DNA of 64,000 nt from Marsupella aquatica (lineage: Eukaryota; Plantae; Marchantiophyta), in contig OZ316895.1 in the NCBI GenBank assembly GCA_973895155.1, positions 17,989,880 to 18,053,879 of the forward strand, given 5' to 3'. The notes beneath the pieces were generated by a model. The model did no database searches. It saw nothing but the letters and a program-made list of their open reading frames with translations, and was not told the DNA's origin. Shown piece by piece: positions 1-64,000 of the stretch. Within the stretch, counting starts at the first letter, position 1. The number at the start of each line of letters is the position of its first letter. Position numbers and translations under genes: made by a program.

Positions 1-2
1 CT

Positions 3-41448: not shown

Positions 41449-42373
41449 CGGTGCAAGGGCGCCGTTCCTTTTAGGGAGGGCGGACGTGGAGGGAGGAGGC
41501 GTGAGTGGGCAGGGCGGGCGCTGATCTCCAAGTTTAGGATTAGGATCAGAACCAGGAGCGGCCCTGACACTTAGCTTAGTGGGATTGTGGTTCCACTGGT
41601 AGGAGCAACACTTGTGCTCCTGCCTTGCTGTACATAGGTAGATTCGGGCAAGTAGATTACTGTTAGGTAGATTAGGCTTACGATGCAAAGAATGGCGGAT
41701 CCACTACCAGGATAAGTACCTGGGCAGCGGGGAGCTCAGGGCCTCTTCTTTAGCAAGTTTTTAGTTTGCACCAGCCGGGCTGGGATCAAGTAGTACGAGA
41801 AGCTCTCGGTTAGTCATACAGTGACCCTTGTGTATATTCATGTTTCCTCATGCCTAAGAGCTGAATAGAGTTGGCCTCACGGCTTAGTTCGCAGAACTTG
41901 TGTATGAGATGTACTGTTTGTATGGCAAGTGCATGGTATGACTCAGTCAGAATGAGTCATTTTGCTATTTGTGTGTCGCATTAACTTGTGTGAAGAGTGC
42001 CCACATCAACAGAAGGAAGGAAAGTAAGCAGGGGAGTAAGAGTTGGATGTGTCGAGCTGAGAGAGGTCTTAGCGGCTTAACCAAGCCTATTGGGGATCAT
42101 TCCGGCGGCGGAATCCAAACATACCTAACAAGACGGAGGGGAAGACAGGGGAAGACAGGGGAAGGCCTATATTAGGCCGGCTACGTATCTCATGACCCGA
42201 TGAAGGATCTGTCCAGTATATGTGTGTAAAATGTTAATAGTAGTAGTAGAAGGTTAGCAGCGTCCCATGCCGCTAAGCGGCGGAAACGGCCTCGCCAAGC
42301 ACGAAACCTGCGGGAATCGGCTTGAGCTGGGGGGTTTCGTGGGTTTAGGGAGCCATGGGACGCACCACATTTT

Positions 42374-42390
42374 TGGCGCTAGATGGAGGG
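42374..42390 (+). promoter_or_regulatory. Primer-binding site, tRNA-Asn type
   Basis: tggcgctagatggaggg after a 4-T spacer. Complementary (1 mismatch) to the plant tRNA-Asn 3' end CCCTCCTTCTAGCGCCA as I recall it. Confidence 0.8.
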
Positions 42391-42438
42391 GGCATTTCTT
42401 AAGCCGTGAGATATGAAGTTAGAACGGAAGCGTAGGTA

Positions 42439-43557
42439 ATGACTGACCTTACGCCGAGGGAAGAAAGAGTGATTCAACGGGAGAGAGCTCGACTGCAGCA
42501 GCTCGCCGGGTGGCATGATACACAGCGACTGAGAGGGGCAGAAAGAGCTGGTAGCTCCAAAACTGGAAGTGGCGTCGAAGAAGACATACCAGAAGAAGAG
42601 TCGGTAAGGAGAAGTGAGTCTCCAACCGACATGGGGGAACCAGAGGCACGGCCAGACGAGAGGCCAGGGACCAGATTGAGCCAGCGGTCGCGCATACATT
42701 ACAAGGCATTTCATGGGAGAGGAGATGAGGATCCGGACAAATGGTTGGATGATTTCGAGGGAACCGCTGCAGCAAATGGAGAATCGGCCATCAAGATGCA
42801 GATTCTTCCCGGCCTGTTCAAGGGTGAGGCTAGGCCTTGGTACAGAGCATTAGATGTGGAAGATCAAGCCATCTGGGATATCTTCAAAACACTCTTTGTT
42901 AAGGAGTTTCGACCCATTGGAACTTCAGAACTAGCAGTGCTGAAGTTGGGACAACTTCGGTTCAAGGAGAACAAATCCTTCAGGAAGTTCTTGCAACGCT
43001 TTCAGAAACTGGTAAGACGTACAAAGACCAATGCATCTGAATCTAGAGTCTCGGCAACAGTAGGTCAACTATTGAAAAATAGCCCGTATTTCCGGAAGCA
43101 ATTAAGGAAGGCTATTCTCGGCAAGCCGAGATTACCCAAGGTAGCAACCAGATCCGACGTACTAATGATAGAAGAAGATCAAGGAGCCCCAGCATTACCA
43201 TTAATGATTCAAGGAGAATTATTACTACGGGTACCCATCGATGGAGGATCAGGGGTATGTATTATGATTGATTCAACAGCAAAAGGGTGGGGTCTAACAC
43301 CGGAGATGACTGGAAGAGTGTTGAACATGGCCAATGGATATCAGGTCATTCCGACGGGAGTGTTAACCGGCATCAAGACAGAGATAGGAGGTATCTTCTT
43401 TAGCATTAACTATGTAGTAATGAAGCCGGTAAATCCTACGTCATTCCGGCTATTGATTGGTAGGCCATGGCTGTACCTAGCCGAGGTAATAGAAGATTGG
43501 GGTAAAAAAGCAGTTCACTTTCGGGACCCCCTCTATCACGGTATCCTGGGACACTAA
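42439..43557 (+). pseudogene. gag-pol: Gypsy gag (capsid) joined by an apparent deletion to aspartic protease
   Basis: FHGRGDEDPDKWLDDFE, LFKGEARPWY...WDIFKTLFVKEF (retrotransposon gag). Protease VPIDGGSG...LLIGRPWL. Confidence 0.85.
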
Positions 43558-44139
43558 GGATGACCGTAGAAAAAGCATAAGGGAAGTAGATGGGTACGAC
43601 AGTGGACTGGAGTCAGCCGATGAAGTACGTTGGTTAGAATGCCTCACTAACCTAACCGAAGAAGGTGTCTTTGGACCAGAGGTAGCCCCCAGCGGATTAT
43701 GGCAAGAACCAATGGAAGGTGACTTGGAAGAAGAAGACGAAGAGGTCGAGGACTGCTTTACAATAGAATCCACCTTTTTCGCTGCAATTCCGGAGGAAGT
43801 AAAGGATGTAGACCAATTGGATGAAACGGCTAAGTGGGGAGCAGTAGCAGGGACAGTGGATTTTCTGCAGGCCTTGTGGCAGAGCCGACGGGGTCCACAA
43901 CGCCATCGATCATCGGCAAGGAATTAAATACCAAGGGATCGGCATACAAGCCGATTACGAGGGCAGAACAAATTGAGGCCCTATTAGAAGCCGAGAGAGC
44001 ACAGCGGCCTAACTCTCAGGAGCAAGAAGTGGATGAGATGGACAGACACGATCCAGAGCCAAGGCAGGAAGGGGAGCCGACCACTAATTCAAAACCGAAT
44101 AGACCGGTAAGGGGACAATCTATGGACACCAAGGAAGGG

Positions 44140-44809
44140 ACCATCCCATATACTTCGCAAGCCGTCAGCTTGCCGATGCCGAACGGAACTACTCTACCAC
44201 GGAAAGAGAAGCATTAGGAGTCATTTATTCTTGTAAAAAGTTTAGGCATTATTTACTAGGGTACAAGGTAATCTTTCATACTGATCATGAAAGTTTGAAG
44301 TACCTAGTCAATAAGCCGGACCTTACAGGCAGAGTAGCAAGATGGATTTTGCTATTACAGGAGTTTGACTATGAGCTGAGGATCAAGCCGGGAAAGTTAC
44401 ATGCCAATGCCGACTTCTTTTCAAGGATCACAGGTAAACCTGCCACGGATTGCATCGATGATCGATTCCCCGACGAGGAGCTATTCGTTGTGGAAATAGC
44501 TGGTACATGGTACCCTGAGATTTTACAATTTCTCAGCACTTCCAGATTACAGCCAGGATTAAGCCGAGAGCAAGCCGCAGTCTTTGTGCGGAAGGTCAGA
44601 CAGTATCAGTGCATTAAAGGCATACTGCACAAGCATGGAATCAACGGCACGATTCAAAGATGTTTGGAAAAGAGAGAGGTAAAACGAGTCCTACGGGCCA
44701 TGCATGGAGAGGAGGCCGGAGGACATTTTGCCCCAGTAACCACGTCTAAAAAGATATTAAATGCCGGTTACTGGTGGCCCACCTTGCACAAAGATGTCTA
44801 TCAGTTTAT
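44140..44809 (+). pseudogene. pol: Gypsy RNase H and integrase Zn-binding fragment (RT deleted)
   Basis: PIYFASRQL..AERNYSTTEREAL, HTDHESLKYL, RVARWILLLQEFD, MHGEEAGGHF...GYWWPTLHKD. Confidence 0.85.
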
Positions 44810-46068
44810 CCCTTTTTCCATAGGGAGCAGTTGGAGAAGCACCAATTAGAAGAAGCGGTGGCTTTAGAGAGAAGCAAGAAGGACGAGGTCATTCGGCGGC
44901 TTAGGAGGATGGAAGCCGAGATTGAAGATCTAGGGGCGGCCAAGAAAGCCCAAGATGAACTGCGGATTAAACGACATGAGCTGAACATCATGCAGGGGCA
45001 GTTGGACACCGCGCAGGCTGATAATCAGAATATCAAGGATAAACTGACTCAGACGCAGGAAGAGTTGGCCGACACGATCAAAGAGAGGGAGAAGTGGAAG
45101 CAAGAGCTGAAGAATACAGAGGAGGCCCACATAACAGCCAACAGCCGGGCCATGGCGGAGACCCAAAGAAAGGAATGGGCGTTGAAGGGGGAGCTCGAGA
45201 AAATCCGCGGAGCCCTTGAGTAGAAGGAGGCCGAGTTAGGGAAATCCTATCAAGGGATTATGGCGCTGCAGCAGGAGCTTGCGTCCCTGACGGCCAGCTT
45301 CAAGGCCGACCTAAGGGAGAAGGACGAGATGCTCGAACAGACTTACGCCAAGATGAACCAGATGGAGTCTGTCATCATTGCAGAGCTCGACAAGGAGCTA
45401 AGAGCAACCCAGGAGGAGAGGACTACCTTGAAACAAGAACGGGAGGAAGCCCAGAAGGAACTAGAGGAGGCACGCAAGGACCTGGATGAGACCCAGGAGG
45501 AGTTGGAGGAAATCACGAGGAAGATGGAGAACCTACAGCGGCGGGCCGACAACCAAACAGAGCGGCTGAAGAAACAAGCCGCAGTATTTAAATGCTTAGC
45601 TGCAGCAGGTCCATCTCCCGTTGGGACAAACCAGTTATCAGGGGTGGTAATTGCCGAAGCACAAGCCGCGCCACCTGCACCAGTGCCGGAAGTAAGTGGG
45701 AAGGGGAAGGGACCAGCTGCCGAGCCACCAACGAAGAAGAAGCGGAAACCTTCAGGGTCAAGGAGTAATACGACTTCACAAGCCATGGTGATCAAGGAGG
45801 TAGACCCAGCACCGACCCCAGACAGGGTCACGGCTAAGGATCCAACTACCCTAGGGGAAGGGGAGGCCGAAGCCGTGGGAGTGGCTGAGGCCGAAGCCGT
45901 GGGTATTGCCGAGGCCGGTGTCGAGGCTGAAGCCGAAGGTGGACCCAGTCAGGCCGAGGGAGAGTTGACTCGGTCAAGGGCAGGTAATCTGTCAGTAGGC
46001 GGGCCAACGGCAGTGGCTGAGGAGGAAGTGTTGGGGGCGTCCATTGAGGATCCACCACCGGTGTCGTG
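44810..46068 (+). pseudogene. C-terminal half of the family A LTR protein in the truncated 3' LTR
   Basis: Near-identical to 40189-41448 at offset 4621. Confidence 0.85.
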
Positions 46069-49000
46069 ACGGTGCAAGGGCGCCGTTCCTTTTAGGGAGG
46101 GCGGACGTGGAGGGAGGAGGCGTGAGTGGGCAGAGCGGGCGCTGATCTCCAAGTTTAGGATTAGGATCAGAACCAGGAGCGGCCCTGACACTTAGCTTAG
46201 TGGGATTGCGGTTCCACTGGTAGGAGCAACACTTGTGCTCCTGCCTTGCTGTACATAGGTAGATTCGGGCAAGTAGATTACTGTTAGGTAGATTAGGCTT
46301 ACGATGCAAAGAATGGCGGATCCACTACCAGGATAAGTACCTGGGCAGCGGGGAGCTCAGGGCCTCTTCTTTAGCAAGTTTTTAGTTTGCACCAGCCGGG
46401 CTGGGATCAAGTAGTACGAGAAGCTCTCGGTTAGTCATACAGTGACCCTTGTGTATATTCATGTTTCCTCATGCCTAAGAGCTGAATAGAGTTGGCCTCA
46501 CGGCTTAGTTCGCAGAACTTGTGTATGAGATGTACTGTTTGTATGGCAAGTGCATGGTATGACTCAGTCAGAATGAGTCATTTTGCTATTTGTGTGTCGC
46601 ATTAACTTGTGTGAAGAGTGCCCACATCAACAGAAGGAAGGAAAGTAAGCAGGGGAGTAAGAGTTGGATGTGTCGAGCTGAGAGAGGTCTTAGCAGCTTA
46701 ACCAAGCCTATTGGGGATCATTCCGGCGGCGGAATCCAAACATACCTAACAAGACGGAGGGGAAGACAGGGGAAGACAGGGGAAGGCCTATATTAGGCCG
46801 GCTACGTATCTCATGACCCGATGAAGGATCTGTCCAGTATATGTGTGTAAAATGTTAATAGTAGTAGTAGAAGGTTAGCAGCGTCCCATGCCGCTAAGCC
46901 GCGGAAACGGCCTCGCCAAGCACGAAACCTGCGGGAATCGGCTTGAGCTGGGGGGTTTCGTGGGTTTAGGGAGCCATGGGACGCACCACAACATAGTTGA
47001 CTCGACTTCTAAGGGGGTCAACAGGCCCAACGGCAGTCGATGCCCAGTCGATGCCCAGTCTCTACGAGGCCCCGCCCCGCACTTGCCCAACAAGCTGGAC
47101 TCTGGCTCTCACTCCTTGGTGCGCTCTGACCCTGCTCAGGCCGGGACTCCCCATGCCTCGCCTTTCCTTACGCTGAGATAACTAAGCCTTCTCCCCTCCC
47201 ACAATGGAAGGGAAAGCCTAAATACTATGGTTGGGGAAAGGAACCGGAAGATACTACCTTCCGGGGGGGTAATGCCTACTGACTAACCACCCTCTGACTA
47301 GCCGGCCGCACTCCTCTAACCGGTTGACCGTTGACGACAAGGGCGTTGACCGGAATGGCAGCAGCTAAGTCTACTGACCAAAATCTAGTCTGTTGATGGA
47401 CTCTATCCTATGTTGGCTGATCCTAACTGATCCGGTCCTAATTCTTCCTACTGTGCCACTAATCGACGCCTAATGACAACTATTCTGTCGTTACGCCTAA
47501 CCAGAAGATGCCGCTGACTCAACCGCCTTGCGCAGCGCCTGCTTCCTCCCTTCACTAACCACCCCTTATGTGCGAGCCATGGTCGGACCAGGGTTTGTCC
47601 CTCTGTCGGGGCGAGACCTCGAGCCACCTTGATCAGAGGTGGGCCCAGGTGTGATGCCTAGCCAAGAATCACTCGGCCAGTTAAGTGGGTAAAGCAGAAG
47701 TGCACCCTAGAAACACCTTAGTATAGGGACAAAACAAGGAAAATATAAACAATTAGGGGCGACTATGGAACCCGGGCCGAGGCCGGAGGTAAGGACGCTG
47801 GGGGTGAAAACAAGATTAGGGTTAGGGCGCGCTAAGCGTCGGCGGCTAGGAAGGATCAACGGAAGGAAGGACCGGAAGAGGAGAGGGGTAAGGACCGCTC
47901 GCGAGGAATAGTGGCTCATTTGCAAGAACGAACTGGGCAGACGACTACGGGAGGCCAAATGCTATCAGCTGCTTAGACAAGCACTCGGGGTGGGAACAAA
48001 TACCAACGATCGACTCAAGGAGGGTATGAGCAACGTCAATCAAGCGGCACATTTCTGGGGATGCCTGTTCAAACGGGCAACTGAGTACATCAAGACTTAC
48101 GAGGACGAAGAATCAGAAAGGGCAGCTCGAGAATGACAGGAGCTTGCTCGATTGTGGGAGCTGCAAAAGACGGCTTTCTTAGGAGGCGAACTCATCAAGG
48201 CCGAGTTCTTGTGGACTCCTACTTCCAATCAGCTCGACGATCTTCTATTTTGCGAAGACAGAATCATCGGCATTCGAGAGGCCATCAAGAACTACAACGA
48301 CATACACTGGGAATTGAAGGGTAGCACGGAAAGGTGGACCCAGGCAACGGTGCTAGGAGAAACCTCCACGGCAGCAGAGATGAAGAGGAAGGGAGCCGTC
48401 AACAATGAAACCACCCCGGCAAAACGAACGAGGTCGGTGGCACCAAAGAAGCCAGCCGAGCAGCAGAGCAGGAGGCAGGGAGAAGCCGAAGAGGAGGAGG
48501 TCGATCCCATCAATGCCATTCCAACCAGGGATGACACCTAGAAAGGCTGGGCGGCAACCCTACCAGTGGAGGTGCAACTACATTTTGCACGGGAGGAGGA
48601 TGCATGCTTTACGGCCATGCAGACCAAGAAGTACCAAGGCTTCATGGTCTGATCCGGCTTAGAGGCTTTTGTAAGATTACCATGTGTCACGTCATCGGCT
48701 GTGGCCTTAACTCAGACTTCAGTTTAGACGGGCATATCCCTCGTAAATCTGAGGGTTCGGGCAGGAAGGGAAGCATGTAATGCACCTTATTCTCGTAAAC
48801 TAACGCTAAGTGCGCATACTGCTAAATACGGACACCTCCTAGGTATGGTTTGTGTTCCGCCGCCGGAACGTACCTTAGTCGATAGTAGGATCGACCCCGG
48901 CTTAAGGGCTTCTAAGCCTTCGTGTTGTCCGCCTTCGATCCGGATTCGATGATACAGGTCCTCAACCCGTGCTCGCAACCACTTACCCGCAGGCTGCACC

Positions 49001-49582
49001 CTGTGCACGTCTCGGGTAGTGCGTTTGGCCTGGCGCTGCCACCCATATAGGAGAAACCCACACACATACACGCGCACATGCATACAATCTCGATTTACAC
49101 GAAGGAAAATGATGGGAAAGGATTTTACTACAAAGGGAACATATGCGTACACTTAGTTGACCCGACAGCCCTGGAATGAACAGGTTCAAGGCCGAGGGTG
49201 CACACTACAATGGAGCCCGGCTCCGCACTCGCCCGGCGAGCTTAGTCCTACCCCCTCCCCTTGGTACTCTTTCATTCCCAGAGGTTGGGACTCCCCGCAC
49301 ATACTGCGGACGCCCAACTTTGCAACTAAAAACCCCCCCCTCGCTCTACCGAGGGGGTGCACTAAATACTAAGGGCCGAGGGACGGGGTGTCCTCTCGCC
49401 AAAGATTCACTGACTACGGTCCTAACTAAGCTGACAGTCAGGCCGGAAACGGTTGTGTTTTATTAGAAGATCCTAATCTATGCAGGCTGGACAGCACGGC
49501 AGCGATGCTGTCCCTGAGGCAGGTGCCTGTCCCAAGAGCCTGACTAAGCTAGTCCTAATCCTACTCTATTCCTACTCCGCCA

Positions 49583-52304
49583 CTAATGCCTGGCACGCTT
49601 GCCAGAGCCACCTGAATGGGAGCGGCCATCCCGCTGCCTTCGGAGCCTGTCATTGTCCGCTTTGAGGAGCTGGACCTGGTCCAGCAGAGATTCGTTCTCT
49701 CGCCTCGCCGCGTCCGTCTCCTCTACTGCCTCCTGACAAGCCTCCTCCAACTGCTGGGCGTCACTTGTCAGTTTTCCCGCCAGCTGGTCCTGCCTCTCGG
49801 CCTCGGTTTGGAGCCGCGCCACCTCGGCCTGCAGCGTGGCTATCTCCGCCGTGTCCCGCTGGGCCCGTTCCTCGGCCTCCTCTAGGTCTTTCTGCCAGGT
49901 GACAGTTTGATTCTTCAAACTGTCAATCTGGTTCCGGAGTCTTGTAATCTCGGCTTCGTTCCCAGCTTTGGCCTGTTCGGCTAGGGCGGTAAGAGCGTGC
50001 GCCTTTGCTAACAACTCATCGGCGGCTGCAACCTTGGGTTGTAGTTGCTGAAGCTCAGCCTCTTGAGCCGCAACTTCGTTCTTTAGATACACGAACTCCA
50101 CCCGGTACCGCTCTATCCTCTGAAGGGCCTCTGACTGGGCCCGACCTGCCTTTACTGCGGCAACCAACTCCTGATTGAAGAAACATGCTACCTTCCAGGC
50201 CATGAACTCCCCAGTATCCCAGGCAATTTGATGAGAGAAATCTCCCAGAAGCCCGTTCAGAAATGTACCCGGTACGAAGAGTTCCGGGTGTTCCAGGTTG
50301 TGCCTGTCCGGAGTTGGGCATGGGCAAACGTCCACACGCGCGGGGGCCGGGGCAGTGACGTCCAGCCCTGGGGACGTAACGTTGGAAGGGGCTGGAGCGT
50401 CCTCCTGTAGCAATGTCCGGTTCTCTGGAATAGCCACCGGTGGGTCTTTGGGAGAACCGGGCTCGGGTAAGACCTCCGCCGTACCGACTTCTGTACTTAG
50501 CCCGGCCTATTGGGTCGCATCAACGGTTGTGACACCCAACCCATCCGGTACCTCCTCGGTTACAACTACAGCTACTTGTGGAGGTGGGGTGGGTGAAGTT
50601 GGCGTGTCCGCTGGACTTCGGGCCTCGGGCTGGGGCCGTCTCTCCAAGGCCAGGAAAACTCACCTAGCTGGGACCAGCTTTGTAACGTTGACACGGGGAA
50701 GGGTTCGTCGATCAAACCGGGCGTACCACTCAAGAATGATCTCGATGTGGCTAGCGAAATACGCCTTCCCGCCAATGTACAGCGTCTTCCTTTGCCGCTC
50801 CATCTCTTCATGGAATTTCTTAGCGAAGTACGACGCCCACCTCCTAGGTCGATAGTTCTGGACCTGGATAACCTGGGCGGCGGAGATCTCCCCCCGGGGT
50901 TCCATCATGTGGAGGGCGTACCTCTGGAACTCCAGTCGCTCAGCTATCGGGGATGAGGCAGGTTTTCATCATGAACCCGTTATCCACTGCTCCCTCTGAG
51001 GGAAAACTTGAAGATTGGTACTTGGCTCCCTTGCCCCTGGGAGCCCGTGATTCGACTCGATGGTCACCTTTGGGTAACCCGAAGATCATCCTGAGCCGTT
51101 CTTCCGTGAGGGACATACTCCTTCCCCGTAGCCGAGTATGTTGACGCGCGTCGTCATAATTCCTGACGAACTCCGTCATGTCCTCCCCGTAGTACCTGCA
51201 AGTGTTCCAGGGGAGGGAGGCGAGGTGCTCGAATCCCTGAGTCTTCAGGTACACTGCATGCTTGGGATGGAGGATGTTTTTGTGAACGTTTTCCCCCATG
51301 CGGTGCATCGTCACCTTGGCCACGGCTACCGTGGCCAATGGTAACCCGGACGCAGTGGCGGATTCCTTCCTCTTCTTCCCCCATGACTGGCTTGGGGAAG
51401 GTGACACCTCCCCATCCTCCCGATCGGGCCTGGGTAGTGCTACTGCCGTTAGTAACGGGCCCGGGTCAGCCACGGTCACCATGTTGTCTGCCGGGGCCGC
51501 TCCTGGGGTCAGAGCAGGGGGTGGGGACGATATAGTATCGGCCCCCTGAGCGCTTGTTCCTCTAGGCCGCCTGGTCAAGGGTAGGGTAGCCTCGTCGTCA
51601 TTGCTAAGATCCACAACGTTGATGACGGATCATACTTGTACTGGCTGGGCGATCGGTGGTGGGGTTTGGCTAGGCTGCGGCTGAGGCTGAAGCTGAAGTT
51701 GAGCCTGAGGTTGTACGGGTACGGGTACGGGTATGGGTACGGGTACGACTGAGTTGGTCATGTTGGTTGCTGGCCGAGTTCCTATGAAGCTCTGCAGGTG
51801 CTGGTAGAAGTTCTCCAAAGCGAGTGCAGACGATCTTGTCAAACGGGTAGTGCTGGACTCGCTGTTAGCCCGAACCTGAGCAGGGATGTGGTCGAAGTGA
51901 TGTCGCTGCAAGTCGATCGTACCCGGGATATTGAAGACCTCGTCCGGAAGCCGAAGCAATGCTTCCCAGAACCCGATATATTTGTCTCCGTTGAAGAAGT
52001 ACCCGGATACCTCTACTGGTCGGTAAAGCTTGCTCTGAGACGGGTAGTCAAAGTTAAGGATGTAGTGGTGTCGTCCTGCTAGGCGGATGGCTCGCTCGTA
52101 CTCGCGTTCGATTTTGTATCGGCGTGGGTTGGCGTGTTTCAATGAGTCGGCCAAGTGCCTTCCGGTAGATAGGAACTGCATCCAAATCGAATGGCCGAGC
52201 TGGAGAGAATCGTGTGCGACATTCAGAGGAGATAGTAGTGGCGACTTAGAGCGAACGAGAGAGCTGGGGTCGAAGTTGGCGCGTGGACTGATGGACTGGT
52301 GCAC
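49583..52304 (-). pseudogene. Family C LTR-encoded protein (~900 codons, several stops/frameshifts)
   Basis: ORFs 51630-52304, 50940-51614, 50660-50908 and 49583-50437. Motif DMTEFVRNY...RGRSMSLTEERLRMIFGLP, C-terminal coiled coil. Confidence 0.8.
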
Positions 52305-52323
52305 TACAAAGGGTTGGCTCCCC

Positions 52324-52331
52324 TTTTATAC
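52324..52331 (-). promoter_or_regulatory. Candidate TATA box of LTR C
   Basis: Minus strand reads ggTATAAAAGgggag, ~360 bp from the LTR start and just upstream of the ORF. Confidence 0.5.
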
Positions 52332-55300
52332 CTTGAGGGCTTGTCGATCCCCCGACGTCTCCTCGACGCCCATAGGCTGAACCGCTCACGCTTGTGGTGT
52401 GCCGGCCACTCCGCCGGTCTGAGTCAGCGCGTGTCAGTGGCCGCTTCCTTAAGTTCGTTATATGGACCCGAGGGAGGGGCCCCTCCACGCTCGTAACCCG
52501 GGTGTGCGAATAGCGACCAGCCGCCAGTCCGAACCTAAATTCCCCCTTATTGCCTAATGATATCCTACCCATAATGATTACCTAAATACTGTCGTTATGC
52601 TAATAATAGCGGTCTAAGACACTCCTAACGCGCGTGCCGAGCGTAGTTAGACCGAATCACTCATTAACCGCCGTACCGGCGGCGTCACACCATGGCTGAA
52701 GCCGGAGGTGCCGGATTCAGACCTATTAGAATTCGTGGGGTCATGGGAACCCGAGACCAATTGCACAAGGATATATGGGAAGGATTTCTATCTTACTCCC
52801 AAGGTGATTGCCGAAGTGTTTGGCTTGCCAATAGGCAATAAGACCAAGGTTGATACCAGGAAGACCTTGCCTGACAAAGAGTTCCGGTCGTTCCCCGGGC
52901 CATCAACGAAGAATGGCTTCTTCCGGAACACCTGCACCAACCCGCACATAGGAGAGATGATAGACTTCTTACGGGTGACCATGCATTGTAACTTGCCGAG
53001 GGCAGAGATTGGCAAGGCACAGGTCTATCTGGCAGAGAGGCCAGACCCAAGCCGGGACTACAACGGGTACCTCCTCAACCAATTGAAGAAAATCTTAAAG
53101 GTGGAGCAGCAGGTAATCGGCATGGGGAGCGTGTCGCGGCTTGGCTATCACATGCCGTTGTTGTGCCGGTATGCCAGAGGTCAGACCTTTGCCCCAGTTT
53201 AGGATTAGGATCAGGACCAGGAGGCGGCCCTAACACTTAGCTTAGTGGGATTGCGGTTCCACTGGTAGGAGCAACACTTGTGCTCCTGCCTTGCTGTACA
53301 TAGGTAGATCCGGGCAGATAGATTACTGTTAGGTAGATTAGGCTTACGCTGCAAAGAATTAGGAGGATCCACTACCAGGATAAGTACCTGGGCAGCGGGG
53401 AGCTCAGGGCCTCTTCTTTAGCAAGTTTTTAGTTTGCACCAGCCGGGCTGGGATCAAGTAGTAAGAGAAGCTCTCGGTTAGTCATACAATGACCCTTGTG
53501 TATATTCATGTTTCCTCATGCCTAAGAGCTGAATAGAGTTGGCCTCACGGCTTAGTTCGCAGAGCTTGTGTATGAGATGTACTGTTTGTATGGCAAGCGC
53601 ATGGTATGACTCAGTCAGAAGGAGTCATTTTGCTATTTGTGTGTCGCATTAACTTGTGTGAAGAGTGCCCACATCAACCAACAGAGGAAGGAAAGTAAGC
53701 AGGGGAGTGAGACTTGGATGTGTCGAGCTGAGAGAGGTCTTAGCGGCTTAACCAAGCCTATTGGGGATCATTCCGGCGGCGGAATCCAAACATACCTAAC
53801 CAGAAGGAGAGGAAGACAAGGGAAGGCCTAGATTAGGCCGGCTACGTATCTCATGACCCGATGAAGGATCTGTCCAGTATATGTGTGTAAAATGTTAATA
53901 GTAGTAGTAGAAGGAGGTTAGCAGCGTCCCATGCCGCTAAGCCGCGGAAACGGCCTCGCCAAGCGCGAAACCTGCAGGAATCGGCTTGCGCTGGGGGGGT
54001 TTCTTGGGTTTAGGGAGCCATGGGACGCACCACACCAGGTCTTCCCCGCTGGAGGACGAGCAGGGTAATGCAGTCCTGTAAGGCCTTGTTGTCCCGCATT
54101 GCCTCCTTCGCCTCGTTTGCAGCTTCATTGGCCTCTGTCTGGAGCCGTGCTACCTCCAGGTTGAGCTTGTTAATGGAGTCGCGATGGGTCTGGTCCTGTG
54201 TCAACAATTTATCCCGTTCGGTGGAGAGACTAGCTACCTGCTGAGCCGCTTGTAGGAATTGGTTGTTGAGGTCGGTCAGGTTGGTAACCCGAGCTGAGGA
54301 TTCCGAGCGCAACTGAAGCATAGTGTCGTCCAGCTTCTTGAGATCCGCTTGTGCCCTGCTTAACTCCTGGGTTAGTCCGTCCCGCTGTTCGATGGTGCGG
54401 ACTAACTCCTCACGGCGGGTAGTGGCCTCCTCCTCGAGGTGTTCTACCAACATTTGGAGGCGCCCGATCTCATTCCCCTTCGCCATGAGTTCTTCTTCCA
54501 AGCGGCTTACGATCCGTGGTTGGTGCTCTAACATGAAGAAGGCTGGTTGAAAGTACACCAAGACTTGTTGTCCGATGTACGTCGCCAGCTCCCCGGATAG
54601 AGTCTGACTAAACTTCTGGACCAGGTCGTAGGCCATGGTCCCTGGGGCTACTTGGTAGTCCTCCATCCTCTCGGGTACCGGTAGTTCCTCAGGCGGGGCA
54701 ACGAGCTCCTCCGTAGTCTGCGCTGGGGAGGGGAAGGTTTCTTCAGGTGGTGGAGGGATTGGAGGTGGTTGTACTGGGGGTAGCGGAGGCTCAACGGAAG
54801 GGGGCGGCGGAATTTCAACCCGGGGAGGTGACGGAGTATTAGTCAGGGCTTCCGGCTCGGGGTTTTCCCAAGGCGAGGTAGTCTGCTCGCTCGGGGTAGC
54901 CTCCTCCGTAGCGGGGGTGACATTAGTCGGGGCTGAGGTGGCCATATTCTTTCCCGTGGCCTCCCGCCGTGCCTTGTACCAGGCGAGGATGATGGCGATA
55001 TGACTTCCCAGGTAAGTCTTCCCCCGGATAGCCATACCTCCCTGAGCCCGATTAAGCTCTCCCGAGAACCTTCGGTAAAAGAATTGGGCCCAGTTCCGCC
55101 GTTTGTACTGTTCCACATGCATGATCGTGCAGAGGGAAATCTTGGATCGTGGCTCAATCATGTGTAGGGTAGTCCGTATGAAGTTAAGCCGCTCCATGCA
55201 GATTAAGTTGGTGCACGACCCCTGCTTGTATCCGTTGTCCATCTTACCTTTGGGTTTGAATTGCCGAGGTGTATACTCCTTATCCCGAATTTGAAGTTCA

Positions 55301-57916
55301 ACCGGCACCGGCCTGGTTGGCAGGCGGAAGATCTGTGCTAACCGATGCTCTGTGAATGATAAGGTCTGCCCTGAAACCTTGATGGTCGATGTGTTGGTGT
55401 TGAAATTGGAGATGAACTCACAAATCTCCTTTGGCCCGGCCGCGCACGGTCTCCATAGCAAGTGAGCGAACAGCTCCAACTGATGCTCCTTGAGATAGTC
55501 CGCGTGGTCGAGTTTCTTGATCACGATCTAGACTACCTCGGGAACGCGGATTACCTGTAATAAGTTAGACTTGGGATTATCCGGGGGCCGTTGGGTCTGG
55601 TTGGACGGGGGGTTTGCCGGGGCAGGTCAGGAGCGGCGTTGGTTCGCGTTGTCAATTCGGGGGCCGACATCGTTCTTGCCCGCTTACGAGAACGCTGCTC
55701 GAGATGCGGACTAACTCGCTCGGAACCCAAGAACACTCGGTGTTGTTCACGGGACGGACTTGGGATTGGTGTGGGGGTACGCCAGTGGTCAACGGCTGAG
55801 GGGCTGGTGGTGTCGGTGTAGCCATATCCTAGCTGAAGGCGTTGGAGCTTTCCCCGAGGAACGTAAGATTACGCGCCGCTTCCCGTTGTCTATTGATGTC
55901 TTCTTGGCGCTTTTCGGCTGTGATCTGCTGGTCTAAGTACCCCGAGATCTTGTCAAACTCCGCTTGAGTAAGCCGCTGGCTGCCCTTCAGCCTAAAGAAC
56001 TTTGCGGGGACTTCAAGAATCGCCTCTGCTACCGATCTAAGCCCTTCCTCACTGAGATATAGCTTGGTGATGTAGTCTCACAGCTCGTTGTAGCTGGAAT
56101 CCCTGGTGATGGTTGTCTTCTCGCAATTAACCTGTGCTACCTTGGCCACCAGCTTTGCGTATCTTTGTTCATAAGTGGCTTTCTCGGGACAAGAGTACCA
56201 GTAAGTCTCGGAGAACTTAGCACCTACCTCGCCAAACAAGGTCCAAAATCCCAAGGCTGTAAGGGTCATACTAACCTTTGTAGTCCGGTTCGTCGAGTCC
56301 GCGTTCCCGCTGTTTGGTCCGCTTACTGGTGGAGGCCTTCCTCGCCCTGACTAAATCTTGCCACAACCCGCTCTTATCCCTTGATGATTTCCTCGTAAAG
56401 GTCAGCTTGATTCGAGCAAGAAGGCAAGAAATTGGCAGCGTCCGCGAATTTTGAAAGGTAGAAATGAGCAAATGGCCCGCAACGCCATCAACTCCTCTCT
56501 TATGGAGGTGCCAGGGTGAGCTCGAGCGTGAGAGGGCCAGGCCGTTTTGGTCGTTGATAATGAGCTGAAGTCAGCGTCTCAGTCCAAGCGTGATTCTTCT
56601 AACGGATTTTTACTCCGCCGCCGCCACCGTACCTTGAGCGAGCGTAATAATCCTATTCCTTAATTCATAATCATTCAGTCAACTAACCTACTCCTAATCT
56701 ATTCATAATGGCAAAAGATAGCTATTCATGCTATTCTACGCTACGGCTACGGTCCTAATGACCGTATAAGACCTAATCTATGACCTGCGTTCGGTTAAGT
56801 GACACGTTATCCGTGTCACACGGAGGAGCCCAAATAGGGCCGCGAGCCAAAGTAGACGGCAGTTGTAACCAAGGATGCCTGGAACAAGCAAAGGGAGCCC
56901 GACAGCCAAGCAAGCCGGGAGGATGGGGCGAGTCCCGGCATAGGGCGGCAAGCCATGGAGGGCTAAGGGGCAGCAAAGAGGGAGGGGAAATTAACTTCCC
57001 CATCCCTGGGGAGGCCTCAGGAGCCGAAGGCAGGCCCATAGGGCCCCAGGCCATTCAAAGGAGGCCATTAAAGCCCGGTAGCAGGTACCAGGTACTTGAG
57101 GGGGAATTAAATCCCCCAAATCCTGGGGCAAACCAAGGCAAGGCGGGGATTTAGCTCCCCCGGTCCTGGGGGAGGCAGGTAAGGGCTTGAAGGAGGGGCA
57201 AAGGACAGGGGATATTAAAAGCCCCCGGGTCCCGAGGAAGCTTGTACGAGGAAGAGAGGGGGGCCTAATAAGAGCTCCCTAGATACGGGAGGCTCCCCAC
57301 ACCTGGGGGAGGCCTCCAAGGGCAGGTGAGTGAGGGGGGAGAATTAAATCCCCCAATCCTGAGGGCAGGTACCGGGCCTGTGGGGAAGCAGGTGCAAACG
57401 GAGGGGGATTAGATTCTCCACATCTCGGGGGGCAGCCAGCCGAGCGCGCGCTAAGAGGGCGGGGCACTTTGGTGACTCCCTCACTTTCTTTTATTTTCCT
57501 CCCTCATCCTGCCTTTTCCCTCACGATGCCAAAAGCTTCCCTCAAAACAACCTCCTTTGTGAAGAAGACCTCTCACTCTCTAGCATTTCCGATGCTTTTC
57601 TAGTTTTTTTCTCAAGCTTGGCATTGAGTTGTGTTGGAGCTCCAGTTGGCACTTCCGTGTGGCGACCTTTGGGGTGCATTGGCAAGTGAACTCAATCGTG
57701 TTACGGGGTCTTTTTTCAGGCCAGGGATTGAATTGGGTTACGGGTGATGGGAGGAATTTTTTGTGAGCTGAACGTGAATAGAGATTGCACATGAATTTGA
57801 GATTGCCGCTGGACAAGCCAAAGTTTAGTGTGGCCTGTATCCGTAGATACAAAGCCATCTATTGAGACTACATTGCATCATGGATTGCGGAGGAGAGAGA
57901 GAAGAGACTAGCAACC

Positions 57917-59398
57917 ATGAGTAACGGACCGTAAACACGTAACACATCCATTGCTAGGAAGGTTTTCCTCAGAGTGTACCCTCGGACTTCTGCTAAGGTG
58001 ATGGAGGAGTGCAAGGAGATATTTCAGGCCTCCGGTATCACAAATTTCATGAGGGTGGAGATCAAAATTCCCCCAAATAAGAGTTGGGACATTTGGGCAA
58101 GAATGGAGTTGCGAATAGAGGGGATATACTTTCAATGCACACGTTGTTTGATCCCCAACATTGAACTAGCCCAAATATTGTTTCTCAATAACCAAGACTT
58201 CTCATTTCAGCCGGTGGATCCACTAGGGGTACTCACATTGGAGAAGCTTGCAGAGGTGGTGTTCAAGGATCCCACCTCCGTAACCAACATTCCCTTCTCA
58301 TCCTTCAGGGAACCAGGGTACAAGGGGTTTGTGGCCAAGATACACCATTGGGTGTTTTGCCGTGGCCAATCCGGAGTGGTAAGTGGGAATCAGTTGGCTA
58401 TTGCCAATGACATCAAATTAAAACCACCCAAAACATGCCTACAGATGGTGGTACTTTGGATTAAAGAAAGTGTTGGCCCTGGATCCCAAGAGTGTGAAAT
58501 CAGGAGAAGTATCCATTTGATGGGATCCTTTCTCTTGGCTAGAGCAAAGGGACTCATCCTCCCACCTGAAGGAGAAACCGTGCCACCCTTCACCATGGAG
58601 ATCCGTACAAGATAACCACGACCATCTTGGGAGACCTGACTAAGGAGTCATTGTTTGAGGCTGCAACAAAGCAGATTACGGAGGAGGACCCTAAGGAGGA
58701 TAGCACGATGGAACGGTTGGAGTCACTTGTGGGGAATCCGGAGGAGCCACTTGATTACAATTTGCCAGACGTATACTTGGCTGAGTTCCAGGATTTCTGC
58801 AAGGGGGTGCATGAGGGGCTGAAGCTATGCCAAACATTGAGAGATGCTCTGAACCAAGCAAACGCCAAGGCGAGGACTTTACAGGTGGATAACCAGGCAT
58901 TGAAGGATGTCATCAAGGCTAAGGAGGAGAGGATCCAAGAGAGGAGTGGATTACTGAAGGAGGCCCAAGTACAAATTTCTCAGTTGCACGTAACATTGTC
59001 CACCAAGACCAAAAAAGCACAGGAGGTGGGAGCCTTGAGGGAGGAGTTAGCTAAGCAGAAGCATACCTCTGGAGAGGTGGAGAAACTGAGGAAATAGATT
59101 ACGGAGCTATAGAGTCAAGTTGGAGTTTTTGAGGCTAGGGCCAAGAGAAGCGATACATTGAGGTTGGGGAAGAGGAAGAGCCCTTGCCCACCTAGTTCCA
59201 CTCTCTTCCCCAATTTGGTTTCAAAAGCCATTGAGATGGTAGTAACGGAGCCAGAAGTACGGACCTATGTTGGAAGCGGCAAGGAAGAGCACGGAGAAGT
59301 GTAAGAGTTTGGAGAAGAGGCTGAGGGAGGCCCGTAAGTCACTACGGGAGGCACAACCAAGCCACAAAGTCACAGGAATGCCAGGGATGCCACCCTGA
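57917..59398 (+). pseudogene. Family D ORF: divergent plant-transposon domain + coiled coil
   Basis: ORFs 57974-58615 and 58627-59097 plus in-frame continuation through stops. Aligns by eye to ORF H. Confidence 0.65.
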
Positions 59399-61157
59399 TC
59401 AATGACCCCGGGAACTCCTATGGCCACTGGCCAGGTCTTGCCATTGGAATTGTGAGGTGGCGAGGAGGCAATGTTGTAGAAGGACACCATTGGTCACGGG
59501 TACATCAAGGCTTAGCGACGTTACGGAAGCAGGGAGCCTCGGGCCAAACATCAGGAAGGATCACCCCGGTGAAGAAGAGGGGAGGAGATGCTGCATCCAC
59601 CCAGGGAGATAGTGAGGCAAGTAATGATTCTCAAGGATGGAGTCCCGACACAATTAGTGAGGCAGAGGAGGATTAGTGGTCGTACGGATGTTGGCCATAC
59701 GGATTTTTTTCCAACATATCTCAAAACCGCCAACTCACATGCTTGTTGGAAGGAGCTTGGGGAGCTGATTTTGGCAAGGTGCGGTGATTCCCAAACAGAG
59801 CCAAGACGGGTAAGTTGTGAGTCTGGGAGTTTTTGTAGTTTTACGGATTGAGACCCCCATAACTTGGCCGTTCGGGATCCGTTTGGGGAACCGTTTACAG
59901 ATCCGTGATCAAGAGGAGCAGGCTAGGGTTGTCCAAGGCTCTCCTCATGGGAGTAGTTTGAATGGTTTTAGGTTTTAACCATGGTAGGGCTCCTTCACTT
60001 TTCATGGGCTACGGATTACGGATTGTTGGTGGCACCGTTGAAGGCACCGTCGGTTCCATACTTAGGTTAGGGTTTTAGGGGGGCATGTGTGTGCCGCATG
60101 TTTTAGGTTAGTGGATTTTGTGAATGGGGTTTTAGCGGCGCCGCTAGGGTAGCCGCCATCGTTTGACCTCATACGTGAGGGGTGCTTTGATGTGGTGGAG
60201 TATTTAGTTGGGAGCCCCATAGTGGAGTTGGGGGGGAACTCAGTTGAGCTTATGTTTGGAGATTAGCATTACATAAGAATAGAGAATCAATAAGGAATAG
60301 TGAGGTGAAGAGATACGCATTGTTCCGTGGAGGAGGCAGGAGTTGGGTGGATTGCAGGAGGCTGGATTGCCCATGCAATGTGTTATGCTGGCCACCAAGA
60401 GATATGGATTCGGTTGTTTCACTGATTTTTGCATGGAGTTGTCTCTCTTTCTTTTCAAGATTTTGTTCATTCTTGGAATGATTGTTTAAAAGATACTTGC
60501 ACGGTTTGGTCGGCTTTGGGAGTGAGAGTGGTGACAACACTTTGCCGAAGGCCATTGAGAAGGCTAGTCCATGGGACTTGATAAAAAATGAGTAGGCTAG
60601 TTCATGGGACTTGATAAAAAATGGAGAACATGCCCAATCAGTAGACTTGATGAAAAAATATATTTTGGGGAGCGGAAACCAATATACTCATCCTTGTATG
60701 TGAATAACCCAAATAGCATCCCTCCACGTTCCCATAATAGGACACAAACAAGTTTAGTAGAAGAAATGTGCAAATTTGTAGCGTAACTCGCCAATCTATT
60801 CATTAAAAGTGAATTATTATTCAATTTCTGAATATTTGGGTAATAGAAAGTGTACATTTGGCTTTCAAAAAGTGTACAAAAGGGCAAGAAATAAAGGTGA
60901 TGGCCATCAAATGTATCACCATGTTCATCCATTGTAAATGAACTAGGATGAGACTCCTTCTAGTAAAGATCATTTTTGTGCCCTCAAGTTTACAATTGAC
61001 AATTTAGGTGTAGAGTATTGTACTATAGTGTACCTTTTGGGGTTAAAAAGTGTACATTTAGAAACCAAAAAATGAACATTTAGAGGTCTAAAAGTGAACA
61101 AAATAAAATACACTTTTAATGAATAGGGTGAGTCGTTAATTTGATAAGCAGATGACA

Positions 61158-61460: not shown

Positions 61461-61558
61461 AGTGAGCAAAATAACATTGGGATCATCATTGTGCTCAACC
61501 ATGTGAACACAAGGATCTATGTCATTTGTTTATCAAACAAGAACTACGTATATTTCCA

Positions 61559-64000
61559 TGTGGTGCGTCCCATGGCTCCCTAAACCCAAGAAACCCCTCT
61601 GCACAAGCCAATTCCCGTAGGTTTCGCTCTTGGCGCGGCCGATTTCGTGGCTTAGCGGCATGGGATGCTCCTAACCTCCTTCTACTACTATTACTATTAA
61701 CATTTTACTCACATATACTGGACAGATCCTTCATCGGGTCATGAGATACGTAGTCGGCCTATTCTAGGCCTTCCCTTGTCCTCCTCTCTCTGTTTTCCTT
61801 TAGGTATGTTTGGATTCCGCCGCCAAAATGATCCCCAACTAGCTTGGGTAAGCCGCTAAGACCTCTCTCAGCTCGACACATCCAACTCTTACTACCTTGC
61901 TTACTCCCTTCTTGGTTGATGTGGGCAATCTTCAAACAAGTTAATGCGACACACAAATAGCAAAATGACTCCTTCTGACTGAGTTATACCATGCACTTGC
62001 CATACAAACAGTACTTCTCATATACAAGATCTGCGAACTAAGCCGTGAGGCCAACTCTATTCATCTCTTATGTATGAGGAAACATGAATATACACAAGGG
62101 TCATAGTATAACTAACCGAGAGCTTCTTTAACTACTTGATCCTAGCCCTGCTGGTGCACTAGAAACTTGCTAAGGAAGAAGGCCCTGAACTCCCCGCTGC
62201 CCAGGTACTTATCCTGGTAGTGAATCCGTCTAATTCCTTGCAGCGTAAGCCTAATCTACCTAACCATAATCTACCTATGTACAGCGAGGTAGGAGCACAA
62301 GTGTTGCTCTTACCAGTGGATCCGCAATCCCACTAAGCTAAGTGTCAGGGCCGCCCCTTGGTCATGATCCTAATTCTAAACTTGGAGATCTGAGCCTGCC
62401 CTGCCCACTCACGCCTCCTCCCTCCACGTCCGCCCTCCTTAAAAGGAGCGGCCCTCCACCACCGTCATGGCAGCGGTGTCTGGTCCTCAATGGATGCCCC
62501 CAACACTTCCTCCCTCCACGTCCGCCCTCCTTAAAAGGAGCGGCCCTCCACCACCGTCATGGCAGCGGTGTCTGGTCCTCAATGGACGCCCCCAACACTT
62601 CCTCCGCAGCCACTACCGTAGGTCTGTCCTCTGACAGATTACCTGCTCCGGACCGAGTCAACTCTTCATCGGCCTGACTGGGTCCACCCTCGGCTTCGGC
62701 CTCAGCATCGGCCACGGCCTCCCCGGCATGTTCTAGTGGTGGATCCGGTACCCCGACTTCATCACCAAGTATCCTAGCCTCGGCTTTGCCATCCCCGCCT
62801 TCTAGGGCAGTTGGATCCTCTGCCATGACCCTACCTGAGGTTGGTGCTAGGTTTACCTCCTTGGTCACGACGGCTTGAGGAGCCGTATTACTCCCTGACC
62901 CAGAAGGTTTCCGCTTCTTCTTCTTCTTTGGTTCGGCAGCTGGCCCCTTCCCCTTGCCACTTACCTCCGGCACTGGTGCGAGTATCTCGGCTTGTACTTC
63001 GGCCAGTACTACTCCTGGTAAATCCTTCTCCCTAGCCAGGGCTGTCTCTTCTTCCTCCCTGAGTCATTCCTGAAACTCCTGTGCCGTCTGTTTTATGCCA
63101 TCAAAGCTCGGGGGAGCGACATCTGGTGGGGGAGACTCGGCTCTACTGGGTCCGGTCCCCTCGAACTACTCTTGGAAGAGTGGGGATGAACCTGCCACAG
63201 GTCCTTATTCCTGGAACATGATGATCCGACCCGTAGCCGGAGTCATCATTGTCGTAGCCTTCTACCGTCTCCTCCTCGGCTCCCCCCGTTGCTGTCCTGG
63301 TCCTGTCGTGAACACGGCCTCATAGATCACGGGTCCTGGTTCCTCCGGCTTCCACGTTGATCTCATCTTCTCCTTGTCGTGACCAGGGGCTTCGGGCTGC
63401 TTTTCCTCGGCTTTGGGACTTGAAGCTCCTACATACATTCGGACTCCCGGCTTGTGTTCCGGCCTCCTTCTCTCCTTGACCCCGGTAAAGGGGTTTTCCC
63501 TTGTAAGTTGGCTAAGGCCGACTTTGGGAGCAGTATTCTGTACCGGTCCCGTTGCCATTCTCCTTTCCTTCTCCAACAATTTTAGCAGATTCTGCATGCC
63601 TAGTTGCTGCATTGGCAAGTCCTCCTTCCTCGGCCTAAACACCTGCTCGATTGTAGGACTGTCGGGCTGGGTTGGTTTCTCTGTTGCCGGCCTTGGTTCC
63701 GGAACCTCTTCTGGTGCTCTTGCCTACAGGGGCAGTACCGGGGCAAATATCTGACTTTGGGCATACCGGCACAACAGCGGCATGTGATAACCAAGCCGGG
63801 ACACGCTTCCCATGCCGATCACCAGCTGTTCCTCCTTCAAGATCTTCTTTAGTTGGGTGAGGAGGTACCCATTGTAGTCTTGGCTTGGGTCTGGCCTCTC
63901 TGCCAGATAGACCTGTGCCTTGCCAATCTCTGCCCTTGGCAAGTTACAATGCATGGTCACCCGCAAGAAATCGATCATTTCTCCTATGTGCGGGTTTGTG
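61559..64000 (-). mobile_element. Family A' LTR (3' part; runs off the window), deleted ORF
   Basis: Starts tgtggtgcgtcc and is homologous to 7868 onward. Internal duplication near 62410-62600 and a deletion near 63018. Confidence 0.88.

Follow-up and report, generated by a model that had tools for sequence, protein, structure and literature searches.

A selected open reading frame inside the LTR of a liverwort Gypsy retrotransposon, with a core domain predicted to fold like the anti-silencing protein VANC21

Family A, a Ty3/Gypsy LTR retrotransposon with an LTR of 4.6 kb, carries inside that LTR an open reading frame (ORF) of >1,000 codons that has the orientation of gag-pol and is under purifying selection. 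The window, the 64,000-nt stretch of DNA analyzed here, is a nest of TG...CA units bounded by 5-bp target duplications (TSDs). Two further units, B and C, are each likely a solo LTR from a sister family that diverged anciently and has a homologous ORF, and the core shared by the A, B, and C proteins is predicted, on structural modeling, to adopt a fold like that of VANC21, an Arabidopsis anti-silencing protein. The complete reading, in which the protein would also bind DNA and counter the silencing of its own family, stands in our judgment at an even chance.

Two copies together define family A: its LTR precedes the primer-binding site (PBS), gag, protease, RNase H, and integrase in one TSD-bounded element and follows integrase and a short purine tract (PPT) in another. 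The latter comprises the C-terminal part of an integrase (1..828, + strand), whose frame extends a few codons into the 3′ LTR, the PPT (806-815, +), and A1, a 3′ LTR of 4659 bp with TG...CA ends (819..5477, +). The former, A2, is an internally deleted element (37755..46990, +; TSD ACATA) with an ORF-bearing 5′ LTR (37755-42369, +) and a truncated 3′ LTR (44810-46990, +), the LTR parts showing 12 differences over 2181 bp. A PBS-like sequence beginning with TGG (42374..42391, +) lies 4 nt past its 5′ LTR, and the interior (42436..44809, +) encodes gag (PF03732), protease, RNase H (PF17917), and the integrase Zn finger (PF17921) in Gypsy order, with reverse transcriptase (RT) missing from this deleted copy. 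The gag gene starts 66 nt after the 5′ LTR, and the integrase frame extends up to the 3′ LTR with no chromodomain-length extension at its end. Also present are A3, a solo LTR that has lost the linker and coiled coil (47650..54034, +; TSD CCAGG); A′, a diverged solo LTR with a nested insert (7868..14087, −; TSD CAACA); and A″, a further diverged and deleted LTR that runs off the window (61559..64000, −). The initial annotation had called such LTRs giant, which is an overstatement, as LTRs of up to ~5 kb are known in non-chromovirus elements according to the available part of PMC6317226.

The ORF is stop-free in A1 (1192..4254, +), where the frame is open from 880, and runs further in A2, relative to which A1 is apparently frameshifted near the ORF end; all window copies other than A1 are broken. 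The ATG at 1192 (LTR position 374) is likely the start. Between A1 and A′, dN/dS is 0.16 to 0.31 over codons 106 to 1060 and 0.87 over codons 1 to 105, and this break in selection coincides with the ATG, which aligns to the starts of B and of relatives from outside the window. The core alone gives a dN/dS of 0.10 against A″ and 0.07 against A3. The low ratio (~0.2) spans three domains and their linkers, namely, an N-terminal helical domain common to B, C, and the outside relatives (1192..1530, +), a basic core with a pI of 9.1 whose model matches VANC21 (1765..2364, +), and an approximately delimited coiled-coil region followed by a KKKRK basic cluster (3307..4059, +).

Chance combinations of TG...CA ends with 5-bp pairs are frequent (6711 in the window), and unit ends were therefore checked independently. 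Contigs from other runs join across the insertion of A in B (47644>54035) and across that of C in A (48678>52689), and they display a depth step with mixed flanks at the B end at 37325 and an empty Copia site at the left end of D. The TSD-bounded units B, C, and D that had been described from the sequence are real, with sizes of ~3.86 kb net, 4005 bp, and ~4.9 kb net, respectively; their extents reach far outside the 47566..59398 span assigned to them because they are nested in each other, with A2 and A3 inserted in B, C in A3, and B in D, all insertions into same-group LTRs. With the nest resolved, a B end at 56804 or 57815 and a D start at 56813 were dropped as chance TSD-like pairs. An interpretation of B, C, and D as short-LTR nonautonomous elements was rejected, as they have no terminal direct repeats. 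It was also considered whether F1 and F2, two units of an ORF-less family, could be long inverted repeats belonging to a DNA transposon; since a separate TSD bounds each of them, they are two solo LTRs. The 3′ noncoding part of a second B-like LTR (5668..6628, +) is 86% identical to B.

Unit B (37325..56820, −; TSD CGGAG; net of A2 and A3) and unit C (48685..52689, −; TSD CCATG) have TG...CA termini, exact TSDs of 5 bp, and an LTR-type cis motif in common with A and lack internal terminal repeats, all of which suggest solo LTRs. Both ORFs are in pieces. That of B (54040..56269, −) comprises an N-terminal domain (55925-56269), the core (54943-55527), a Pro-rich linker, and a coiled coil, with its last codons resuming at 47649, beyond A3. 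That of C (49583..52196, −), which sits inside the core codons of A3, comprises an N-terminal domain (51846-52196), the core (50681-51287), and a coiled coil (~49586-50270) and is interrupted by stops at 51630 and 50507 and by a frameshift near 50946. At two of the stops and at the C frameshift, contigs from other runs do not match the window, and we read these breaks as private to the window copy.

Homology among the A, B, and C proteins is supported by BLASTP (E values of 2.5e-14 for A-B, 2.5e-14 for B-C, and 1.5e-8 for A-C) and by a hidden Markov model (HMM) of 84 outside relatives, which scores the three cores at 92 to 184 bits and reversed controls at 0.2. The core motifs quoted for A, B, and C in the initial annotation are present, and all three proteins, as well as that of D, have a linker and then a coiled coil after the core, as it had described. 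The three proteins also share an N-terminal domain of ~110 residues that had escaped that annotation; an HMM built from three outside proteins scores it at 45.6 bits in B, 38.3 in C, and 10.9 to 20.2 in the A copies (reversed controls, <0). One outside protein of 906 amino acids aligns to every part of C, another of 623 amino acids aligns to B residues 7 to 491, and among relatives with a named organism, which include proteins of Calypogeia fissa and Riccia sorocarpa, eight of nine are liverwort proteins. A single domain order is retained in A, B, and C at 20 to 30% identity. The cores are basic (pI 9.1 to 10.0) with conserved K/R columns, and basic clusters occur in A and C. The proposal of an old, selected gene in an LTR holds for age and selection, given the dN/dS values and the clustering of A and of C each with outside relatives, and for placement inside the LTR in A.

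The affiliation of this family is less direct. The initial annotation had likened the core to the Transposase_32/ATHILA ORF1/PMD group, and a kinship is indicated by language-model neighbors (Atlas), in which 23 of 30 hits of A are PF20167, and by weak PF20167 matches in 5 of 86 relatives (16.9 to 31.8 bits, below the Pfam cutoff of 45). Membership in these Pfam families does not follow, since the profile search that it had proposed against PF20167, PF03078, and PF10536, extended to DUF1985, gave no match for any window protein at E ≤ 1 in 12 frames. PF10536 and PF03078 matched none of the 86 relatives at E ≤ 0.01, and one relative matches DUF1985, which is a VANC domain according to the available text of PMC5735166. 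Word-based protein searches with the B core, PDB sequence searches with the core and the N-terminal domain, and alignment-based and DNA-motif scans of metagenomes returned nothing. The N-terminal domain matches no Pfam family; two of its five models were confident, and its structure search recovered nothing but helical bundles of a generic kind (Z ≤ 6.0, without a gap).

No DNA similarity is evident between the ORFs, as had been noted; a noncoding motif is shared, however. This 28-nt hairpin motif near the 3′ end is common to A, B, C, and F, with 10 hits in the window versus 0 in 100 shuffles. It is found in C at 48840..48868 (−), in A copies at 5208, 8095, 42100, 46721, and 53771, in B copies at 6429 and 37496, and in F copies at 26703 and 31485, and its orientation and position in B and C are the same as in A. 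The ORF-less family F carries the motif and yet has spread. TATA-like boxes occur at +95 in three A copies and at +360 in C (TATAAAAG), and B has only a degenerate one at +317.

Unit D (36746..61157, +; TSD AATGT/AATGC, 4/5 matching) is inserted inside a Copia RT and contains B. Its ORF pieces (57935..59097, +) include a core-like domain (57935-58612), with an acidic linker and a coiled coil in the next frame. The claimed homology does not extend to D by alignment: BLASTP against A, B, and C gave no meaningful match, the HMM of the 84 relatives no match, and word-based protein searches nothing, and hhalign against the A/B/C core gave a probability of 0.67% and a score of 15.3, below the shuffle maximum of 22.6. 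Neither an N-terminal domain match nor the 3′ hairpin motif was found in D. Language-model features are what connect it to the others, with 25 of 30 Atlas hits being PF20167 at 0.91 and the top hit (0.92) being an ATHILA-17% cluster also seen for A; the shared-feature counts are 159 to 167, where true members typically have 170. D is low copy except near its 3′ end, and a putative TATA box, TATTAAAAG, was discarded because it is one instance of a repeat that occurs dispersed. D likely encodes a more distant member of this protein superfamily and belongs to a separate type of element.

The A core model (pLDDT, 91.4) has a sole match at Z ≥ 5 among 48,161 chains, the VANC21-DNA structure 9LNK (rmsd, 4.1; 189 of 200 residues aligned; identity, 8%), with a Z of 7.7, within a range described by the tool as common where a model has no clear match, and the next at 2.2. 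Foldseek against the PDB did not recover VANC21 among 37 rows for the core and gave nothing at E ≤ 0.001 for the core or the N-terminal domain, and the best row in its viral library was A0A890CAY5 (E = 0.015; TM = 0.38). Structural homology between PMD and VANC has already been published (PMC13547354), and coiled-coil oligomers have been predicted for VANC and Athila proteins (bioRxiv 2024.09.27.615353). The anti-silencing or chromatin role suggested in the initial annotation gains a structural match, to VANC21, from the core model. Sharing a fold does not establish a function, and the host PMD proteins that have this fold were originally reported to promote silencing (PMC5418596).

Because the core is predicted to be VANC21-like, the likely product of each repeat is a DNA-binding protein, which would shield its family from silencing. 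In the proposed mechanism, the TATA-like box near the LTR 5′ end would drive an ORF mRNA ending in a noncoding tail of 0.85 to 1.0 kb. With such an mRNA starting and ending within the LTR, a complete gene would be present in every LTR, even a solo one. The ORF may lie in U3 and be followed by a second promoter that would drive genomic RNA, a placement about as probable as one in R or U5. The basic core would bind DNA and the coiled coil would multimerize, as described or predicted for VANC, making the protein a nuclear oligomer whose effect would be anti-silencing of its own family.

The same anatomy could instead belong to a chromatin tether, a protein that directs integration or keeps the element within heterochromatin and does not lift silencing. 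Such a role would suit the integrase end, the silencing-promoting host PMD proteins (PMC5418596), and the many insertions into same-group LTRs (A2, A3, C, and B), in a window made mostly of repeats, but the sole solved structural match is an anti-silencing factor, and we regard it as unlikely. Somewhat more doubtful is a transcription factor that activates or limits itself on its own LTR promoter and leaves DNA methylation untouched. The predicted DNA-binding core with its basic clusters, the promoter-like boxes within the same LTR, and the absence of VANC-type arrays fit this idea, whereas the kinship of the fold points to chromatin-state regulators (PMC13547354; bioRxiv 2024.09.27.615353). 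It is also rather improbable that B, C, and D are nonautonomous derivatives that move or persist alone, leaving A as the only true gene in an LTR: the ends, TSDs, A-like 3′ motif, and absence of internal terminal repeats give B and C the look of solo LTRs, although no B, C, or D pair flanking gag-pol was seen within the window, the B flanks listed are all different (agreement, 0.47 to 0.65), no PBS was found beside the B 3′ end among these flanks (24 of 98), and D has its low copy number and no shared motif. An ORF that was captured and is decaying as a passenger without a current role, an idea to which the stops, frameshifts, or deletions in most copies and the spread of the ORF-less family F might point, is very improbable and largely refuted by the low dN/dS over domains and linkers, the domain order kept in three families, and breaks that look private to the window copy.

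Returning to the anti-silencing reading, we tentatively propose that liverwort Gypsy elements moved a VANC-like anti-silencing gene into their LTR, making each LTR or solo LTR a self-contained gene. Solo-LTR recombination is the host's main route for deleting retrotransposons. If the proposal is true, a counter-silencing gene persists at high copy number after this recombination, and retrotransposons made use of the PMD/VANC anti-silencing fold well ahead of the dicot VANCs. The literature searched, with most subscription papers outside its reach, yielded no plant LTR reported to contain its accessory gene. The role of PMD-type extra ORFs and the origin of PMD and VANC are unsettled (PMC5418596; PMC13547354; the available part of PMC4408406). 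The predicted structural link would join a retrotransposon accessory protein, from a lineage other than flowering plants, to a proven anti-silencing factor. The A/B/C system is directly testable.

Among known systems, mouse mammary tumor virus (MMTV) sag and HIV nef are accessory ORFs that sit within the U3 part of the LTR or overlap it; they belong to vertebrate retroviruses, are far shorter, and encode proteins unrelated to the A ORF. Transposase_32 (PF20167) and ATHILA ORF1 (PF03078) are the nearest Atlas clusters for A and D, but the window proteins do not reach their models and the matches of relatives all fall under the 45-bit cutoff. Rice Retrosat2, RIRE3, and RIRE8, like family A, are described in the available part of PMC3485330 as having LTRs of >3 kb and an additional ORF, ORF0, whose function is unknown; ORF0 is described as lying upstream of gag-pol in a chromovirus-lineage family, whereas the A ORF is in the LTR. 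VANC21 of VANDAL21 (9LNK; PMC5735166, as far as its available text goes) shares the predicted core fold, a coiled coil, the status of a transposon-encoded accessory protein, and fast divergence between families. It differs in that VANCs, called dicot specific (PMC13547354), are on Mutator-like DNA transposons and the A ORF is in a Gypsy LTR, and no sequence similarity between VANC21 and the window proteins was detected. VANC21 also binds tandem arrays of short motifs, per the same partial source, and such arrays were not found in the noncoding parts of A, B, and C (top 9-mer counts of 3 to 5 versus shuffle maxima of 3 to 5; one copy each, 10 shuffles). The extra ORFs of Tat/Ogre elements (Tat lineages IV and V) encode a PMD and a coiled coil and, in the available part of PMC4408406, were not found in Tat lineages I and II or in moss Tat-like elements. 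Within the limits of that source, the likeness to A is that of an accessory ORF of non-chromovirus Ty3/Gypsy elements with a PMD-like domain followed by a coiled coil. The A/B/C protein differs in its extra N-terminal domain and in having no PF10536 match, and the Tat/Ogre ORFs are internal, 5′ in sense or 3′ in antisense orientation, whereas the A ORF lies inside both LTRs.

The ORF of family A has no room in the internal region and lies inside the LTR. The A2 element (37755-46990; target site duplication [TSD] ACATA) opens with a 4.6-kb unit, after which come a primer site starting TGG, gag (PF03732, E 5e-10), protease, RNase H (PF17917), and the zinc finger of an integrase; the reverse transcriptase (RT) is deleted, and a truncated second copy of the 4.6-kb unit closes the element. 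The window opens with an integrase frame, which leads into copy A1 together with a short purine tract. Because the unit precedes the primer site and gag in A2 and succeeds the integrase and purine tract at A1, it represents both the 5′ and the 3′ LTR. The A1 frame extends over 1124 codons without a stop and shares the sense of gag-pol.

Pairwise Nei-Gojobori dN/dS estimates (custom script; few pairs, all from one window) between copies A1 and A′ delimit a constrained stretch, with values of 0.16 (codons 106-224), 0.20 (225-300), 0.16 (301-495), 0.21-0.31 (496-700), 0.19 (701-820), and 0.20 (821-1060); past codon 1060 the value is 0.5-0.6. The value for codons 1-105 is 0.87, and the A coding start is therefore placed near the ATG at 1192. 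The core, the central domain of the protein, gives a dN/dS of 0.10 when compared with A″ and of 0.07 with A3.

The initial annotation regarded A, B, C, and D as families encoding homologous proteins, which holds for A, B, and C (BLASTP E-values: A-B, 2.5e-14; B-C, 2.5e-14; A-C, 1.5e-8). Searching 1.84 billion proteins with a profile of the window cores recovered 86 relatives at E<=0.001. Among 30 of them checked for a source, nine have a named organism: Calypogeia fissa (six), Riccia sorocarpa (two), and Orobanche minor (one); a liverwort is therefore the likely host of the window. An HMM built from 84 of these relatives (two short ones left out), without window sequences, scored A, B, and C at 92-184 bits and reversed frames at 0.2, with no match to D or G, a further TG...CA unit. 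The relatives also brought out a second domain common to A, B, and C at the N-terminus, where an HMM of three outside proteins scored B at 45.6, C at 38.3, and the A copies at 10.9-20.2 bits. All three proteins thus share an N-terminal helical domain, a variable linker, the core, a linker, and a coiled coil. In a FastTree phylogeny of 44 cores (length, >=150 residues; deeper nodes weak), A and C each form a cluster with outside proteins (three for A, four for C; 0.97 in both cases), and B is placed next to the C group (0.78). Since A and C each group with outside proteins, the families are likely older than the split of their hosts. A non-coding motif of 28-29 nt, ~170-270 nt from the 3′ end, is common to A, B, C, and the ORF-less family F (10 matches in the window, 0 in 100 shuffles); its small hairpin carries a two-sided change in B, and whole-region folding z-scores around it are weak (+0.6 to -2.0).

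The window (GC, ~50%) is plant DNA consisting almost entirely of nested retroelements. D (36746-61157; TSD 4/5) lies in a Copia RT and contains B (37325-56820; TSD CGGAG), which holds A2 and the A3 solo LTR (47650-54034; TSD CCAGG), itself interrupted by C (48685-52689; TSD CCATG). Without nested inserts, B, C, and D measure 3865, 4005, and 4912 bp, in agreement with the sizes first proposed. Unit ends were checked against contigs of other sequencing runs because the window holds 6711 chance TG..CA+TSD pairs. Contig joints omit exactly A3 and exactly C; at the end of B, where the flanks are mixed, depth climbs from ~100 to ~20,000; and the empty Copia site runs on into sequence past the right end of D. 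Depth sums, which are not copy numbers, are high for A, B, and C and low for D except near 60.6-61.1 kb. Family A is near-identical in runs of four organisms (share of words, 0.60-0.78).

The much deeper 3′ end of D (60648-61138) either is common to a more abundant repeat or marks D as composite. At 37360, contigs in three runs match the last 35 bases of B and then continue into one common, different sequence, which is another family with the B terminus. Copia pol fragments (protease, integrase, and RT) at 6562-7888 (-), 35850-36745, and 61158-61550 (-) are the insertion targets of A′, D, and B-like units. A further repeat (10707-12199 and 34301-35803; 72% identity) has one copy inside A′. An intronless host-like ORF at 21937-22488 (-) has a transit-peptide-like start and CxxC motifs, and we take it to resemble plastid DnaJ-like zinc-finger proteins.

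The place of D as a fourth homologous family stands only in part. The D core falls in the same Atlas clusters as the A core (PF20167 in 25/30 and 23/30 rows, respectively; top D row, an ATHILA-17% cluster at 0.92), where scores of 0.9 occur 4-10 times per 100 shuffles. The D protein did not align significantly with A, B, C, or the relatives of these three, database searches found no relatives of its own, and neither the N-terminal domain nor the shared 3′ motif was detected. D is probably a distant superfamily member, and fourth-member status exceeds the evidence. In its 5′ non-coding part (56980-57430 [+] and 37040), a near-palindrome made of a G-run, ATTAAA, and a C-run recurs in six degenerate copies, a candidate binding-site array that was not above shuffles in a 9-mer test. 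Unit G (29084-31171 [-]; 2088 bp, TG...CA, TSD AGCAT) has a minus-strand ORF from 30723 to about 29400 with a core-like motif, an acidic run, and a coiled coil; it resembles D only, weakly (BLASTP E 0.044; hhalign not above shuffles), and is possibly a small fifth LTR with an ORF. The two F solo LTRs (24328-27037 [+] and 31181-33510 [-]) carry tandem arrays above shuffles; they have two longer blocks in common with B and, with C, one block that combines a TATA-like sequence and a C/G hairpin, so that F is a candidate ORF-less relative or passenger.

No window frame matched PF20167, PF10536, PF03078, or DUF1985; weak matches among the 86 relatives (PF20167, 5/86; DUF1985, 1/86) were all below the cut-off. 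Foldseek with the AlphaFold2 core model (61-row alignment; pLDDT 91.4) returned nothing significant. Exhaustive structure alignment found a single chain at Z>=5 among 48,161, VANC21 with its target DNA (9LNK, residues 306-533), at Z 7.7 and rmsd 4.1 over 189 aligned residues; the next chain reached Z 2.2. For this modelled fold, Z is moderate and the coverage and gap to the next chain are large, consistent with published links: in the sections available, VANC is described as carrying DUF1985 (PMC5735166), the MAIL1 PMD as resembling that domain (bioRxiv 2024.09.27.615353), and MAIN as resembling VANC, with coiled-coil oligomerisation predicted for VANC and Athila proteins (PMC13547354). The N-terminal domain is modelled as helices (pLDDT 85), and searches gave no specific family or structure match.

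TATA-like boxes lie 5′ of the ORF in A (+95, three copies), C (+360), and B (+317, degenerate). The simplest reading would place the ORF in U3 under its own promoter, terminating in the R/U5 tail; if the transcript starts and ends within the LTR, any LTR would form a whole gene. An exceptionally long R or U5 holding the ORF has about the same odds. A block shared by C and F just behind the C stop codon (82% over 50 nt; TATA-like start in F) hints at a second promoter. The protein is likely nuclear, given basic clusters in A and C, and likely DNA-binding, as predicted from core pI values of 9.1-10.0 and conserved K/R columns; it is also likely oligomeric by prediction. We give about an even chance to a putative role in countering the silencing of its own family. 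VANC-type motif arrays were not found in A, B, and C, and host proteins of the same fold are described as promoting silencing (PMC5418596); both speak against anti-silencing. Its main rivals are tethering, which we consider improbable, and transcriptional self-regulation, for which we hold still less expectation.

The available sections of PMC4408406 place the PMD-plus-coiled-coil extra ORFs of Tat/Ogre elements in the internal region, whereas the family A ORF is inside the LTR; they report no such ORFs for the early Tat lineages or for the Tat-like elements of mosses. Reviews, as far as available, treat extra ORFs as internal-region features (PMC7264820; PMC6317226) and give LTR lengths reaching about 5 kb (PMC6317226). 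An LTR-internal accessory gene is not described for Retrosat2 (PMC3485330), in the Apopellia genome paper, or in PMC12844716 or PMC1560396, in the parts available, and the literature searched (partial coverage, main texts) yielded no report. The protein resembles VANC in its predicted mode of action, yet falls outside the VANC family, and likewise outside the PMD and PF20167 families, in our tests. The protein superfamily and its architecture are already known; the position of the ORF inside the LTR, the extra N-terminal domain, and the lineage are new.
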